Assembly (NCBI RefSeq): GCF_006345805.1
Contig: NW_021835974.1
Span: 6,000 to 69,999 of the forward strand
Source of the DNA: Octopus sinensis
Taxonomy: Eukaryota
Direction: 5' to 3'
Length of the DNA stretch: 64,000 nucleotides
Part shown: positions 3,891 through 62,697 of the stretch, in pieces
How the letters are laid out: each line of letters opens with the position of its first letter
How positions within the stretch are numbered: position 1 is the first letter of the stretch
Position numbers and translations under genes: made by a program
Notes under the pieces: model-generated
The model's input: only the letters and a program-made list of their open reading frames with translations
The model's database searches: none
What the model was told of the DNA's origin: nothing

Positions 3891-4176
3891 TCTGTGTTTG
3901 TATTTGCCTCGCATGACCTCTTGAGAACCAGTGTGCGTTGGTTTTTTTAACTCCTCATAATTCAATTAGTGAAATAAGTACAAAAAAAAAACATAATTAG
4001 TAATCATGTAACAACAATCACTAAAGTCTATGTCTGCCTTCAGGCTCCGATGAACATATTAAATGTTTCATCTTTGCATTTGCTGAACGGCACTTATTAC
4101 AACAACGATCCCCAAAAATTGTTTGTACTGAATGATATGAATGTAGTATCATAACTATGAATGGATGTAGTTATAA

Positions 4177-4405
4177 GGCGGCGAGCTGGCAGAAACGTTA
4201 GCACGCCGGGCGAAATGCTTTGCGGTATTTCGTCCGCCGCTGCGTTCTGAGTTCAAATTCCGCCGAGGTCGACTTTGCCTTTCATCCTTTCGGGGTCGAT
4301 AAATTAAGTACCAGTTACGCACTGGGGTCGTTGTAATCGACTTAATTCGTTTGTCTGTCCTTGTTTGTCCCCTCTATGTTTAGCCCCTTGTGGGTAATAA
4401 GAAAA
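4177..4405 (+). mobile_element. SINE family A, full length
   Basis: A-box-like TGGCAGAAACG, B-box GAGTTCAAATTCC, core GACTTTGCCTTTCATCCTTTCGGGGTCGATAAA, tail CCCCTTGTGGGTAATAAG. Confidence 0.92.
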
Positions 4406-4629
4406 CATATATATGGATGTAGTATCATCTATACACTGGACAGAAGGTCTCAGTGTATAAATAACTGCATGTCACATAAATAGATAGCATCGAAGAAATA
4501 TTGGTTTGTAAGAGACGAGAAAATGCTGTTGATTATCCGTTTACACACACACACACACACCACACACACACATACATGTATATATATTCATATATATGTA
4601 AGCTCATGTATATATTCTGTTATTCTTTC

Positions 4630-18429: not shown

Positions 18430-19060
18430 TTTCTTCTGTAAGTACAAGGCCTGAAATTTAGTGGGGAGGTGGGGGACAGGTGATTAAATCGATCCCAAGG
18501 TTTCACTGGTACTTAATTTATCGACCCCCAAAGGATGAAAGGCAAAGTCGACCTCGGCGGAATTTGTACTCAGAACGTAGCGGCAGACGAAATACCTATT
18601 TCTTTACTACCCACAAGGGGCTAAACACAGAGGGGACACACTGGGACAGACAAACGGATTAAGTCGATTATATCGACCCCAGTGCGTAACTGGTACTTAT
18701 TTAATCGACCCCGTAAGGATGAAAGGCAAAGTCGATCTCGGCGGAATTTGAACTCAGAACGTAAAGACGGACGAAATACCGCTAAGCATTTCGCCCGGCA
18801 TGCAAACGATTCTGCCAGCTCGCCGCCTAATAATAATAATAATATCCCTTTCTACTGAAAGCACAAGGTCTAAAATTTTTGTGGGAGGGGACTAGTCGAT
18901 TACATCGACTCCAGTGTGTAACTGGTACTTATTTCATCGATCCTGAAAGGATGGAAAGCAAAGTCAACCTAAGCGGAATTTGAACTCGGAACATAACGAC
19001 GGACGAAATTCCGCTAAGCCTTACTTTCCACATGCTAACGATTCTGCCAACTCGCCGCCT
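18430..19060 (-). mobile_element. SINE A dimer (18430-18828) plus SINE A with alternative tail (18845-19060)
   Basis: Two cores joined at GAAATACC|TATTTCTTT (18596/18597). The alternative tail ends in (TAA)n. Confidence 0.88.
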
Positions 19061-19497: not shown

Positions 19498-20092
19498 GAT
19501 ATATAGAGAATACCAAACGAGTTCCCTATGGATACCGTATTTATTACAACGAGTGGCTTGTAAACGTATCTAACGAGCGAAAGCGAGTTAGATACGTTTA
19601 CAAGCCACGAGTTGTAATAAATACGGTATCCATAGGGAATGAGTTTGGTATTTTATTTATTACACACGAATAAACGACCATATTTTAATCTTAAAAAAAT
19701 CATTCACCTTGATATCGACAACAGTAGCCATCTTGTTGATAGATCTACCTGCACTGCAAGAGTATCGACGAGCAGACGAAATATGTTGTGATTTTTTTGG
19801 CAACAAATAATTGAATAACCACCAGAAATGTTTACATTTTATGTGTATATGACTTTAAGTGATATCTGGTATAAAAAAGATAGTATGTTTGTTTAATTAC
19901 ATGGCTACATTCTACCTGCTCGTGAAAGTAATGAATGAAGTTTAGTTGTAACTTATGAATGACAAAAGTAGTGCCGTCACCGTGACCTCGGGTCATCACC
20001 ATGGATTGACCAATCACAGCGCTCGCAGTATCTGATATATGTTAGATACCAAAAATATCTTAAAGTGTTCTCTCTCACATGTGTCTAATAAA
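19498..20092 (+). mobile_element. Putative non-autonomous Crypton-like (tyrosine-recombinase) element with long subterminal hairpin
   Basis: 144-nt hairpin at 19509-19652. TTTATTACACAC (19656-19667) is an inverted match (11/12) to the terminal GTGTCTAATAAA (20081-20092). GACCAATCACAGCGC motif near the 3' end. The architecture is recalled from invertebrate CryptonV-type repeats and has not been verified. Confidence 0.55.
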
Positions 20093-21219: not shown

Positions 21220-21680
21220 GATACAATGTTGGCAATTTCGGGGGATGTTTAAATCGATTAAATCAACCCCAGCGCTCACTTGGTACTTATTTTATCGATC
21301 CCACTAGGATGAAAGGTAAGTCAACCTCAGCGGTATTTGAACACAGAACGTAAAGATGGACGCTAAGCATTTTGCCCAGTTTGCTAACGATTCTGCCAGA
21401 TCGCCGCCTTAATTTATATTAGTACCGTTTCCTTATTTTTCTCTCGTTAAGGCGGCGAGCTGGCAGAAACGTTAGCACGCCGGGCGAAATGCGTAGCCGT
21501 ATTCCGTCTGTCGTTACGTTCCGAGTTCAAATTCCGCCGAGGTCGACTTTGCCTTTCATCCTTTCGGAGTTCTTAAATTAAGTACCAGTTACGCACTGGG
21601 GTCAATGTAATCGACTTAATCCGTTTGTCTGTCCTTGTTTGTCCCTTCTGTGTTTAGCCCCTTGTGAGTAGTAAAGAAAT
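21220..21680. mobile_element. Head-to-head pair of SINE A copies (minus 21220-21410, plus 21450-21680)
   Basis: Family head and core present on opposite strands about 40 bp apart. Confidence 0.88.
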
Positions 21681-23385
21681 ATATTATAATTATGATGAGG
21701 ATGACGACGATGAAGTTGACGAAGAGGAAGTGAAAGAGGACAAGGCTGATAATGATGAATAAGAGGAAAAATGATGACGAGCATGGTGATGATGAAGTGG
21801 GGGAGAAGATGGAACTTGACCATGATGGTGAGCATTATGAAGAAGGAAGAGGAGAAGGATATAGATAACGATGATGAACTATAATTATGATGATGGTGAT
21901 GATGATGACGACAATGATGATAGTTGTGGTAACGAAGGCGGTAGTGATGATGAGAATGAAGATGATTACGATGATGAAGATGGTAGGGAGAAAGAGGAAG
22001 ATATGAAAGTGGATCATGATTATAACAGTGATGATGATTATGGAACGATGATGATGATGCTGATGATGAATTTCATTCCTCACCATCATCATCCTTATCA
22101 TCGTCGTAATTACCATTATCAAGTTAATCCTAATTAACATAATTATGATATTAATATAATAATGATAAAAATAATATCAAACCAAAATAAAAATTTCATA
22201 AAGACAATTCTAGAAGTTAACATCCATGGACGTTTCACGGCTCTTAGATTATTGGAAGCCTATAACGAAGCATGCAATACAAGAATTCTTTTGAAATTGA
22301 ATTATTTGAAAATGAATTTTAATGCTTGTGATACATGAGACTAGTACCGAAAGAACAGTCTTACGAAAGAAGGGAGAGAAAAGAGAGGAGTGGAGAAAAT
22401 ACGGAAAACATGGAGTCCCGGAATAGTTCGCAGAAAGATTGATAGTGGGGGTGATATTTGGAAAAAAGAAACTACTTATATATTTTTTTTAATATAAAAT
22501 ATATAAACCTCATACTGAACTAAATGTTAATTCCCAAAAAAATCTACTAGAGAAATTATGTAAAATCCTTCGATGAAATGAAGTTCATTAGACGCTTTCC
22601 GGTGTCAAAATATGAATTTTCTCCTGTGTATGCAGAGACTGGAGGTCTCTGTCTTAGCATCAAAGTATCAACCTGGTTTTTTCAATTGCCTGAGAATTAT
22701 TATGGTTTATTTGGCCATGCAGAGCTGGCATCTCTTGGTAACTTTCGTGCGTGGTTATTACGGTATATATTTGAGTGTGTGGCTGTGCGTGTGTAAGTGT
22801 GTTTGTGTGTATGTGCATGGTTGTGGTATATGTAATTGTATATATTATTTTGGATATGGGTGTATACGTGATTATGTAATTATCTGCATGTATATATGTA
22901 AATGTGTATAGGTGTGAACGTGTGAATTGCTATTGTTTTTAACAGTGGACAACAAAAACTGATACGTTTAATGTAATTGAAGAGAGAGAAAGAGAGTAAA
23001 AGAGAGAGGAGAAAGTAAACAAGAGAGAAGAGGACAAAAGTGAGAGAGAGAGACGAGTAAAAGAGAGACAAGGGAGTTAAAGAGAGAGAAAGACAAAGAG
23101 TAGAGAGGAGGAAAGGCAACTAGTAGAAAAGTTCATAGTGAAGGAGAGAGGTGGGAATTCAGACAATAAAGAGAAAAACGAAGAAAGTGAGTAGAGAGAG
23201 GGGGAAAGACAACGGAAAGAAGCAAGAGTATCAAGGACCGAGGAAGAAGATGAGAGGGAGAGAGGGAGAATAAAGAGGGAAAAGGGGAAAAAGACAGAGA
23301 GTGAAAATTATATAAGGGAGTAAGAGGAGGGGAGAAGAGATTGAAAAGAGAAGAAAGATAATAGGAGACTGGAGAGGAAATAGCG

Positions 23386-49361: not shown

Positions 49362-50017
49362 TGACACCAGGGTACAGATATACGAAGCCCAATATACCCA
49401 TCATGACTACCCGTCTGTTACGGATTCATCAGGCACATGCATCACAACCATATGTACGCAACGTACGGCGAGCTGGCAGACTCGTTAGCACGCCGGGCGA
49501 AATGCGTAGCCGTATTTCGTCTGCCGTTACGTTCTGAGTTCAAATTCCGCCGAGGTCGTCTTTGCCTTTCATCCTTTCGGGGTCGATAAATTAAGTACCA
49601 GTTAGGCCCTGGGGTCGATGTAATCGACATAATCCGTTTGTCCCCTCTGTGTTTAGCCCCTTGTGGGCAGTAGTGAAATACATATGTACGCAACGTGGTG
49701 ACCTCATATTAAGGTAAACAGTGCATAACCTTGCAAGTGAGGGCCCAGTTAGAATTTTCTTGAAGTCGAGTAGCCCATCTTGCTCAAAAGGTCCCTGATT
49801 AAGTTTTGCTTAAAGATGACGAACGAAATACTCATGTTTCCAGAGGTGAATTATTCAAATCCCAAAGAATTCCTCTCAGTACATGGCTACGATCATTTCC
49901 CCGCTACTCCTGCTCGTGATCAGAGATGTATATATTGTCAGCCATTAAGAGGCATGTTCAACTGGTTAAGGTCAAATAACTGACAAGCAAATCTGTGGTA
50001 TTAAGTAGAATATTTGC
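49362..50017. mobile_element. Second copy of the 7406-7956 repeat, interrupted by SINE A (49465-49680)
   Basis: Collinear similarity to 7430-7852. The SINE is flanked by a perfect 16-bp TSD CATATGTACGCAACGT (49449-49464 and 49681-49696). Confidence 0.88.
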
Positions 50018-50033
50018 TTATTAGTATTGATAC

Positions 50034-51955
50034 TTGTACGTACTGTCACTCGAGTCACTGCTGCTGAAATTGGAATAGCTAAGGGGCATCCCTTTCGAAC
50101 TGGGACAAGGAAGGGCAGTGTCGATATATGCGGACGACCTCACCGTCATGGTATCGCACGCCTCCAAATTGGAGATGGTCGGCACCATCCTAAAGGAATA
50201 TAAGTCGGTTGCAGGAACTAAAATCAACGTTGACAAACCGGTGGGTTTACGGTTGGGGTCCTGGAGATGCAGGACGATGCCATCGGGCGGCGTCGTAGGA
50301 CACTGGACCGACGGGGCAGTTAGACTTTTCGGGGTCTGGTTAGGTCCCGACCTCCAGGTTGATAATAACTGGGACGAGGTGGCGAACAAGTTGGCCAGTC
50401 TTACTGAGAAATGAGCAATGCTTACATCGCCTCCGTTATCATTTATCGCTTGACCGTCGTGCCTTGTCCCAGTTACTACTTGACCAGGTAGGAGCGTCCC
50501 TTATTTAAATTCTTGAGGAAGAGACACGTTCAAATGGTCAGGCGGTCAGTCTGTTGCCAGCATCCTCTGAGTGGCGGATTAGGTATGCCGTGGTTCCTAA
50601 TGTGCAGCTACGCTCTTAGGTTACGCCACCTGCAACGATTTCTGGACGGTGAGCGTGTGTAGCTCAGTTTGAGAGGATCGTCTTTCCGCAGTTCGTCTCC
50701 TTGACGGAGCTGCAGTCCTTGGTGAAGAAAAGACCGGGACTGGGCGCCTGGCACCTAGAATGTCATCAGGCGCTTACAGACCTTTACCAGTCGGGAAATT
50801 GGATCGGTGGATGTTCCGCTTCAGAAATTTATAGAGGATTAGTGACGGGGAAGTGCGATGACGTCCTCGGGGAAGCTCTGGGCACCGACGAGAACGAACT
50901 GGCTAGTCTGTTCCGGAGAACTTTCTGGTCGGAAACTATCATGGATAATTTCTAGATATCATTTCTAGATACCGGGATAGGGGCGCTACCGGTTCGAGAT
51001 AACTCTACAGGCACGGACAGGTTGTCAGACGGGCTTGTCTGACGTACGCGCAGAGTGACGAAACCGTTCTGCAAGCCCTCGTTCAGTGTCCGGGCATTGC
51101 TAACTTATGGGTTTAGGTCGAACAGCTTTTGTCACGTTTGGCATGGATCCGTCTGTCGGCCGAGTCTGTAGTGATATTTCTTTATTACCCACAAGGGGCT
51201 AAACATAGAGGGGACAAACAAGGACAGATATAGGCACTAAGTCGATTACATCGACCCCAGTGCGTAACTGGTACTTAATTTATCGACCCCGAAAGGATGA
51301 AAGGCAAAGTCGACCTCGGCGGAATTTGAACTCACAACGTAACAGCAGCCGAAATACCGCTAAGCATTTCGCCCGATCGTACCGCCACCTTCCTTCAATC
51401 GGTCAGGCAAGGCAGTTTTCCTTTGCTTGGTAGCTGTGGTGAAAGAGGTTGTTTGATGGACAAGGCTGAAAGGTACGAGGACATATACATTCCCCTTTGG
51501 TAGAGCTCTCATTGACTTCTTCAAGTTTCACTTGAAAAAGGAAATTGAGAGGGAAGTGCTGTCCTCGAATGAGTTTACTGAAAGGTGGGGGAAAGTTGCG
51601 AAAATGGCAGGAGTGGATTGTATCTCTCTAAGTATAGACCTGTAAGTCGCAGAGAAGGAATTGGAGAGCACATTTGCTCTTGGGATTTCAGGGAAATCTC
51701 AGATAGTGGTGCTCCTCGATTATCCCCAGAGGCCTTCCTGATACAGGAAGGCCACATCTCTATCATCTTCCCCGCCACTTTTTTTAACCTTTCTATGCTA
51801 TGCACATGTCCCTTCTTTTTCAATGTAATGTATACCGTGTGTATACTTAATTTCTTTCTTTTTTATCATTTCATTATTATATATAAACCCCCACACTTTA
51901 TGCTTGTCTTTGTATTGTCCCCATCATCCTTCTCCCTTGTGGCAAATAAATGAAA
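50034..51955 (+). mobile_element. Tx1/L1-like LINE, 5'-truncated, degenerate RT and 3' UTR; SINE A inserted at 51174-51375 (minus)
   Basis: LYVLSLESLL...SIYADDLTVMV...GTKINVDK...RLFGVWLGPD (RT motifs around YADD) and a decayed C-terminal Zn knuckle near 51030-51090. Contains stops and frameshifts and ends CCCTTGTGGCAAATAAATGAA + (ATT)n. Confidence 0.85.
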
Positions 51956-61226: not shown

Positions 61227-61471
61227 TTTTATACGTATGTTTGTATTTCAGAATTAAAAGAGAAAATTTTAAATTTGGTAAATGTGTGGTTTTTTTCTTT
61301 TTAATGGAAGCTGGAACTAAAATTCCTTTTTTCAGACATACTTTGATCAACTACTTGTAATAACTAACTCTAAGTACAGGCATCGCTATGTGGTTAGGAA
61401 GTAGGAAAGTACACCTTGCAATCGAGTATTTCTAGGTTCGATCCCAGCGGGTGGCATCTTTATTAAATATC

Positions 61472-61702
61472 TATTTCTTTACTACCCACAAGGGGCCAAA
61501 CACAGAGGGGACAAACAAGGACAGACAAACGGATTAAGTCGATTACATCGACCCCAGTGCGTAACTGGTACTTATTTAATCGACCCCGAAAGGATGAAAG
61601 GCAAAGCTGACCTCGGCGGAATTTGAACTCACAACGTAACGGCAGACGAAATACAGCTACGCATTTCGCCCGCCGTGCTAACGTTTCTGCCAGCTCACCG
61701 CC
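61472..61702 (-). mobile_element. SINE family A, full length with TSD
   Basis: TSD TAAATATC at 61464-61471 and 61703-61710. Confidence 0.92.
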
Positions 61703-62697
61703 TAAATATCTCTCACCAGAACTACGAGTTGAAGAAGTCTTTGCGAATGGAAATTGGTAGATGGAAGCTTTGCTGACACCCGTGGTGTATGGATCGATTA
61801 TTCTTTTTAGCCGTGCAGCTATAACCATATATACATAGAGAGATCACCAATGCTTACACACACACACAGACACACACACATATGTTGGGTTTCTGCAAAA
61901 TTACCATGAATCAAAATTCCACTGACAGTGCGTTGTTCAAAGCGATGCTGTGGTTAAAGAAAAAAATAAAACAGTTTGCCAAGGTGTTGCGCAATGAGAT
62001 CGAACCAAGAATCTCATGACTCCGGAACAAACTTCTTAAACACACACACATATAACGGTTGTTGATTGTAACAACGAACCATTTGCCTAGGTTGTGGCGA
62101 TGGTCAATTGTCCGTTGATGAAATTACATTACAATTTTCCACATAATCAATCTATCAATCTTCATTCACTTCTTCCCACGATGCGCCGCCATATTTCTTT
62201 CTCTCTTTCTACGGTACCTCCTATAACATTATCTACTTTAATTACGTTTAATAGCTATCCATGAACGCATGTTATTGGTTACGTACATCAGTTGCTCTCC
62301 TGGAAATAAGCCCCGTAATACGCCAACTAATTCGTTAACCCGTTCTCAATTTGGTTTATTAATTTCTTATTACAAACTCACTCGATCATAATAACTTCAT
62401 TTATTACACTTGTCTTTATTCCACGTCCATGCAAAGGCAATATCAAACTTCTTGCCTGTGTATCAGATAAACAGCTCTTTCCCACATAATGAACGACCTT
62501 GCGAGATTTTAAATATTGTGCTTGGAGCTGATATTTCTCGGGTTGCTCAGATATCCATCTATGTACGGCGGGCTATCGAAATATATGCACGGTCGTTCGT
62601 GTATTTAGTTCTGTTCCACCGATCGCATACTCGGCTCTGACTTTAAATCGGGACACAGTCGACTTCCTTTTCCAAATCTCTCTCCCTCCCTCCTCCT

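Follow-up and report, generated by a model that had tools for sequence, protein, structure and literature searches.

What a 144-nt hairpin broken three times by GA opposite GA is doing in octopus DNA is the question raised by this locus, which lies in the 64,000-nt stretch of Octopus sinensis contig NW_021835974.1 analyzed here and called the window below. A first-pass annotation had taken the hairpin for a single-strand recognition or recombination site of a Crypton-like element spanning about 19498 to 20092. Our results indicate that the hairpin is one end of a 589-bp non-autonomous Crypton transposon of the DUF3504 type; the proposed element was borne out, and its limits had to be moved to 19503-20091 (±1). 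The features of the window copy are listed below.

19499..19502, plus strand: host target remnant ATAT; the family target is ATAN, resembling the element's own far end ATAA
19503..20091 (±1): non-autonomous Crypton, 589 bp, an internal-deletion derivative of a 2.36-2.41-kb autonomous element, delimited by copy comparison and the empty-site joint
19503..19508, plus strand: hairpin-side terminus ATAGAG, whose initial ATA is predicted to pair with 19654-19656
19509..19652, plus strand: 144-nt hairpin, interrupted by three tandem GA/GA loops and located 3′ of the recombinase gene; the GA strand is non-coding
19509-18/19643-52: stem 1, 10 bp
19519-20/19641-42, 19551-52/19609-10 and 19575-76/19585-86, plus strand: GA opposite GA
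19521-50/19611-40: stem 2, 30 bp, with a single G·T at 19521/19640
19553-74/19587-608: stem 3, 22 bp, followed by the innermost 2-bp stem
19577..19584, plus strand: apex GCGAAAGC, a DNA mini-hairpin sequence of unusual stability
19579-82, plus strand: apical loop GAAA
19653..19667, plus strand: internal complement of the far end (20081-20091) and of the first ATA; predicted to splint the two ends
19687..19731, minus strand: remnant of the recombinase ORF, first ~15 codons (ATG at 19731), by alignment to autonomous copy L031
20028..20049: short palindrome GTATCTGA…TTAGATAC near the far end, with a 9-nt word common to the inner hairpin stem
20080..20091, plus strand: far terminus TGTGT(G/C)TAATAA, closing ATAA in 33/33 copies (three irregular copies excluded)

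Structure of the hairpin and extent of the element

The stems, GA/GA loops and apex described in the first-pass annotation were verified pair by pair; five of the GA sites lie in a CGAG context and one in TGAG. Under a nearest-neighbour model, the plus strand folds at −68.3 kcal/mol and the minus strand at −66.0 kcal/mol, with a folding z-score of about −19 and none of 200 shuffles folding as well. The expectation that only the plus strand would fold well did not hold: since both strands fold far better than shuffles, the difference between them is one of kind rather than of fold versus no fold. Energy models of this type are reported to miss the stability of mini-hairpins, and the GCGAAAGC mini-hairpin to melt at 76.5 °C as DNA and at 39 °C as RNA (PMC13037366). 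GA/GA or TC/TC, out of 144 possible types of two-by-two loop, occurred in none of the 17 such loops of 22 unrelated hairpins in DNA fetched from the same genome. A loose pattern search for a second family of GA hairpins yielded one candidate that was rejected, its frequent 14-mer being a coding-like repeat with no hairpin (12 copies). This frequent GC-rich repeat (L154-L165, G000:C1) is probably part of a LINE-type element.

As the first-pass annotation had assumed, the sequence is multi-copy, with a few hundred candidates: a search of the 2.7-Gb genome gave 363 first-look candidates, of which 40 were scored and found to be 96-100% identical across the hairpin, and a far-end query of the same genome gave 349. 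Copies keep both ends and vary by internal deletion, with lengths of 366, 418 (the commonest) and 589 bp (the window copy) and up to 2.36-2.41 kb. Left flanks read A-T-A-N, with A at −4 in 32/39 copies, T at −3 in 36/39 and A at −2 in all 39, and right flanks tend to A (22/33 copies). No consistent target site duplication was found among 33 copies, just 8, 4 and 3 of which have flank repeats of 2, 4 and 6 bp, respectively. The terminal inverted repeats and target site duplication of an ordinary MITE are both absent, in line with the first reading of the site, and classification as a MITE, which requires inverted repeats at both extremities as well as a duplication, was rejected. As for terminal direct repeats, just a 3-bp ATA core is common to both ends, against 4-6 bp in fungal Cryptons; for animal Cryptons none are reported in the available text of PMC3212892. 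A terminus that resembles its target is a Crypton pattern (PMC9977147).

Comparison with empty sites, proposed in the first-pass annotation, revealed exact and seamless ones. The joined flanks of two copies (L019 and L029) align gap-free to paralogous empty sites, which indicates that no duplication took place. At the window site, contigs join 19502 to 20092 in three of four public runs, the fourth carrying a variant of the same site; the flank there is repetitive, so these empty sites may be paralogues. No empty site was found for L031 at 7 paralogous flank loci. The 11/12 inverted match of the far end to 19656-19667 and the GTATCTGA…TTAGATAC palindrome, both noted before, were found as well. 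The single mismatch in the former is not the family state (G stands there in 34/37 copies), and the palindrome is a possible protein-binding site.

Several arrangements of copies and repeats were recorded alongside. One locus (L009, G000:C1:107572828-107574500) is a head-to-tail trimer of 632, 632 and 418 bp with exact end-to-end junctions, which could stem from a multimeric circle or from insertion beside the element's own ATAA end. Two copies in opposite orientation 6.4 kb apart (L008 and L024; G000:C10:20881585(+) and 20887988(-)) could act as a composite or as an inversion substrate. Five loci (L002, L005, L240, L248 and L253) have one common left flank followed by TA repeats, with two element types and a 43-nt apex deletion there, as if the Crypton rode in, or repeatedly targeted, the end of another repeat. 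Autonomous copy L031 (G000:C4:133648.5-133651.4 kb) sits between inverted copies (92%, 173 bp) of an abundant repeat with 2271 candidates. The window itself contains many copies, in both orientations, of a ~240-bp interspersed repeat (18500-19060, 1511-2050, 4171-4412, 21447-21684, 49466-49642, 51174-51375 and 61465-61706), which we take to resemble an abundant octopus SINE-like repeat.

The recombinase and the ends of its relatives

Long copies encode a tyrosine recombinase, as the first-pass annotation had predicted, and the window copy is a deletion derivative of them. Seven near-full-length copies were found in the genome. In L031, the strand opposite the GA strand carries a 527-aa ORF, beyond whose 3′ end the hairpin lies; the protein matches DUF3504 (PF12012, E 2e-25) and Phage_integrase (E 3e-7). 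The catalytic residues are R266, K299, H394, R397, H420 and Y429, with Q at 299 in L031 and K in the six other copies; each position of this R-K-H-R-H-Y set is kept by 37-40 of the 40 proteins aligned, and four of the seven copies (L033, L034, L036 and L038) have all six residues. The predicted structure (pLDDT 79.7) matches the structures of QRICH1 and Cre (Cre E 2e-8), and residues 10-56 of the model (P0001) are predicted to form a small N-terminal beta-strand domain (pLDDT 86-95) before the recombinase fold. The 68 matches to the protein include ones from molluscs and other animals, and the nearest one with a name comes from Octopus sinensis (96%). In viral contigs, a single protein query found no relative, and an alignment query just 8 weak integrase-tail matches at 23-27% identity.

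The 2.36-kb element holds one long ORF with Pfam matches to recombinase-related families only, and neither a reverse transcriptase (RT) nor a DDE transposase was found in it. Of the HUH enzyme and tyrosine recombinase previously offered as alternatives, the HUH enzyme is excluded because the full-length element carries no gene for it. A Helitron, Replitron or parvovirus-like HUH element was accordingly rejected, the autonomous partner having no HUH Rep gene, as was a DIRS retrotransposon, RT/gag and LTRs being absent. By sequence, DUF3504 points to the CryptonA side; AT-rich targets resemble the microsatellite targeting of CryptonV (PMC8869645). Other DUF3504-like matches in the genome (20-35%; L040, L046, L047, L050-L054 and L057) were set aside since they have no match to the element DNA; they may be domesticated genes or old families.

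Relatives came from metagenomes, where 362 loci encoding related recombinases were confirmed; the best 80 of them (30-49% protein identity) were used, and their hairpins were located with a strand-neutral, gapless Watson-Crick finder. Among the 45 loci with at least 600 nt downstream, a hairpin was present within 1 kb of the gene end in 22 and absent in 23. The 26 downstream hairpins of relatives, from 23 loci, contain 62 two-by-two loops, of which 37 have GA/GA on the non-coding strand, 5 have it on the coding strand and 20 are of other kinds. Every one of the 37 stands in a Y-GA-R context. A GNA triloop, described as a DNA mini-hairpin motif (PMC13037366), forms the apex on the non-coding strand in 10 of the 26 hairpins and on the coding strand in 1. 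These hairpins are not independent, since 15 of the 26 group together by sequence; the polarity is the same in only three other clusters, and there is no DNA-level match between the hairpins of relatives and that of the window family. The first-pass expectation of invariant GA/GA with covarying stems therefore stood in part: register and strand polarity are kept in relatives with dissimilar stems, but GA varies within the family (36/63 copies). The antisense position of the GA strand relative to the gene, together with the GNA loops, a DNA motif, makes it likely that DNA, not RNA, is what folds; the sense, mRNA-like strand would carry UC/UC instead of GA/GA.

Two further structures were observed upstream of the matched genes. 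Some hairpins there contain loops of tandem GA or TC (L062:61-143, L069:1468-1572 and L095:2638-2724) and are probably the ends of neighbouring Cryptons. A shorter conserved palindrome with CCAATCAG, 150-330 nt upstream of the gene match (L063, L070, L090, L093, L102, L124, L132 and L133), is possibly a promoter or binding site; in the window family, CCAATCAG stands near 20010, next to the short palindrome of the far-end region.

The segment at 19653-19667 is complementary to both ends of the element, so that the folded strand would splint them into one duplex. On folding, the natural head-to-tail junction of L009 gives a single stem across the joint with a 2-nt bulge. The segment was present in 25/25 copies picked by their far end in which the hairpin end was located (30 picked), the anchor used to locate that end including the segment itself. 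In 15 relatives, the 80 nt inside the hairpin were compared with the region upstream of the gene. Ten of them showed pairing over 16 nt or more, with no more than 1 mismatch, at sites 251-468 nt upstream of the gene match, and 5/15 fail this pairing test, with 13 nt in one and background in four. Unrelated swaps gave a mean of 11.1 nt and reached 16 nt in 1/196, a set that includes the mis-anchored row of the window family, which was disregarded as a relative. The paired words vary between families around constant termini ATAG…ATAA, and the ends are predicted to abut exactly in L064 and L133 and to leave a gap of 1-3 nt in L069 and L136. This splint covariation, in which pairing is kept with different sequences in 10 of the 15 relatives, is new here. 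An internal region complementary to both ends, the mark of DIRS elements, is thereby found in geometry alone. Conservation of the G·A mismatches and of the complementary segment in distant relatives suggests that transposition of these elements as a single folded strand, a route with bacterial precedents, is likely; conservation of an inverted repeat can alternatively reflect protein binding to double-stranded DNA.

Instability of the hairpin within the family

Hairpins were compared in 63 copies, comprising 13 earlier loci and 50 new ones picked by pattern on contigs C1-C6, with 6 loci dropped because their anchor was missing. At least one GA was changed to TC in 36 copies, and the loop was inverted in 24. 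Conversion of the outer site affected the terminus-side arm in 17 cases, the other arm in 2 and both arms never (p=0.0007 if copies are independent). Of 30 far-end-picked loci, the 25 with the hairpin end in reach comprised 6 unaltered and 19 altered forms, namely 8 apex inversions, 8 deletions of at least 24 nt and 3 with conversions only. The element body, for its part, differs on average at 4.4 of 265 nt. Isomers are mixed within one deletion type, which indicates that they recur. Despite this hypermutability, GA/GA is the commonest single form of the hairpin, a combination that fits real extrusion together with selection. On one view, homogenisation at this pace would remove GA/GA if it were not favoured by transposition; on the other, many copies manage without it. 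The isomers may arise during insertion or after it: in a comparison of age, altered and unaltered hairpins carry 4.2 versus 2.3 differences (n=29 and 19; p=0.09), a contrast inflated by one co-converted base.

Mixed forms were observed on 100%-identity contigs in all four runs examined, from four studies, at ~16-25% of the shared-piece depth in three of them. They are not specific to the assembly, and library fold-back artefacts may contribute to them. Contigs aligned to the window left the GA positions unseparated, probably because the arms map onto each other. A repeated 43-nt apex deletion was considered as a sign of apex-less transposition and rejected, since the three copies that carry it share one host flank with intact copies; one apex deletion most likely arose after insertion.

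Possible route of transposition and comparison with known systems

We think it rather probable, without strong confidence, that the element's tyrosine recombinase uses the hairpin end as its substrate in the form of one folded strand, in an integron-like excision and insertion. We infer that the non-coding strand folds in vivo, that the recombinase acts on it, that a single-stranded circle is formed and that replication resolves the outcome. The non-coding strand, once single-stranded, for instance at a replication fork, would fold into a G·A-studded rod. Segment 19653-19667 would pair with the far end and the first ATA, and both ends would come together in a single duplex from which the host flanks project as flaps. 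A single pair of strand exchanges would then free the circle, the host strand being rejoined without duplication. The junction stem of the circle, with its 2-nt bulge, would recombine with an ATAN target, and resolution of the product by replication would let copy number increase too. The role of the sheared G·A pairs and of the mini-hairpin apex would be to mark the used strand or hold it folded, and arm conversions, apex inversions and deletions would be by-products of folding. Against this model, the two strands differ by just 2.3 kcal/mol, 36/63 copies are without the full GA/GA set, and end-to-end junctions were seen in one tandem trimer alone (L009). The relatives in which the finder gave no hairpin (23/45) or the far-end pairing failed (5/15), the clustering of their hairpins and the gap between the ends in L069 and L136 weigh on the same side. 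A more specific proposal, “peel-and-paste”, we put forward as a plausible idea of which we are rather doubtful: in animal DUF3504 Cryptons, a self-splinting ssDNA, marked by sheared G·A pairs and a mini-hairpin, would be moved by a Cre-like recombinase with one strand exchange, the internal segment reading ATAN by base pairing.

Part of these data could also be accommodated by the conventional double-stranded Crypton cycle (Goodwin model), in which the recombinase or a host factor would bind the palindrome and the inverted far-end copy on duplex DNA, and GA/GA would be a side effect of the same YGAR word being needed on one strand at mirrored positions. ACGAG-like words do occur six times on one strand, many genomic copies tolerate the loss of GA/GA, and the rule that the terminus resembles the target fits the published model (CACCG/CAYCG in CryptonF-1_cRei, PMC9977147). 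However, the stems of relatives differ wholly from those of the window family, and yet these hairpins retain the pairing, the GA register, the Y-GA-R context and GNA loops; the far end varies in concert with its inverted copy from one family to the next; and the double-stranded junction has no adjacent inverted arm pair. We consequently regard a purely duplex cycle as unlikely, although it deserves serious attention.

It is less likely again that the folded rod is a priming site, second-strand origin or protection signal of an ssDNA circle, with recombination taking place on a later double-stranded circle, as proposed for DIRS. Hairpin-primed replication produces flip-flop forms, to which the inverted apices (24/63 copies) are analogous. 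Mini-hairpins of the GCGAAAGC type are found at ssDNA phage origins and bind SSB poorly (PMC13037366), and the internal complementary region (ICR) of DIRS is proposed to join ssDNA ends before the double-stranded circle forms (PMC7192593). On the other hand, the hairpin has no paired 3′ terminus, and the element encodes no HUH protein, polymerase or RT to produce the first single strand, which leaves the recombinase as the only candidate for freeing it.

A role as RNA, be it a terminator, a small-RNA source or an intermediate copied by another element's reverse transcriptase, is very improbable: the GAAA loop fits the GNRA class of RNA loops as well, and the hairpin follows the gene on its 3′ side, but the sense transcript would carry UC/UC, relatives have GNA triloops, the copies, though internally deleted, retain both ends and lack tails and 5′ truncation, and Rfam gave nothing at gathering score, the hairpin matches being sub-threshold (41.9 versus 97 bits). 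That a functionless decayed palindrome or assembly artefact is involved is hardly credible, for long palindromes are indeed error-prone in assemblies and libraries, but the same design recurs in many copies and in unrelated relatives, no control loop (0/17) is of the GA/GA kind and the sequence is present in four runs from four studies, which already refutes an artefact for the hairpin itself.

Action of the recombinase on a folded strand, the reading that we prefer, departs from the standard model of Crypton movement, the cut-out and re-insertion of a double-stranded circle. The one Crypton family observed to be active gains copies (PMC9977147), and the anatomy described here offers a concrete substrate (GA strand, junction stem and ATAN target) together with an intact enzyme. 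The hairpin and the complement of the far end make a structural signature for Crypton boundaries, which the literature calls hard to define, and may hint at the DNA shape bound by the ancestors of domesticated DUF3504 proteins (ZMYM, QRICH1 and KCTD1).

The element shares with the animal CryptonA-type elements described so far (DUF3504; Kojima and Jurka 2011, PMC3212892; PMC13465315) a single tyrosine-recombinase ORF with an intact catalytic set, the absence of terminal inverted repeats and target site duplications, and deletion derivatives that far outnumber full copies. Unlike them, as portrayed in the available texts, it has a 144-nt G·A-studded hairpin end and a segment complementary to the other end. 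Animal Cryptons are described without terminal repeats by Kojima and Jurka 2011 (PMC3212892), whose main text contains neither “hairpin” nor “palindrom”. The accessible part of the 2026 Glomhopper paper (PMC13465315) describes variable terminal repeats and contains none of “palindrom”, “stem” and “circular”, and that of Kojima 2018 assigns Eulor5/6 to the Cryptons and does not speak of hairpins. The literature searched yielded no paper on Cryptons with G·A hairpins, a segment like the DIRS ICR or an ssDNA intermediate. Some Eulor repeats are reportedly called hairpin-forming in database notes, where the hairpin as such may be recorded. What we describe is an end architecture, absent from the literature searched, of a known transposon class.

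CryptonF-1_cRei of Chlamydomonas (PMC9977147) likewise has a terminal motif like its target and clean empty sites, and its copy number rises by what its authors call a “complex mode of transposition”. It belongs to another Crypton group, its motif is CACCG/CAYCG versus ATAA/ATAN here, and a folded end is undescribed in the text available. Integron attC sites with IntI (PMC2727003) work like our model, in that the substrate of the recombinase is one folded strand, selected through its unpaired bases, and the single exchange is resolved by replication. They are, however, a bacterial cassette system in which strand choice depends on extrahelical bases and a central spacer; the present element is not a member of the attC systems, and its candidates for strand choice are the sheared G·A pairs, the apex and the 2-nt bulge. 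The ICR of DIRS (PMC7192593) has the same end-splinting geometry as 19653-19667. DIRS elements possess RT, gag, LTRs and an 88-nt ICR, whereas here there is no RT and the segment of ~15 nt is continuous with a long hairpin. If the “peel-and-paste” proposal is true, a eukaryotic tyrosine recombinase would act on folded ssDNA, linking Cryptons in mechanism with both DIRS ICR and integron attC recombination.
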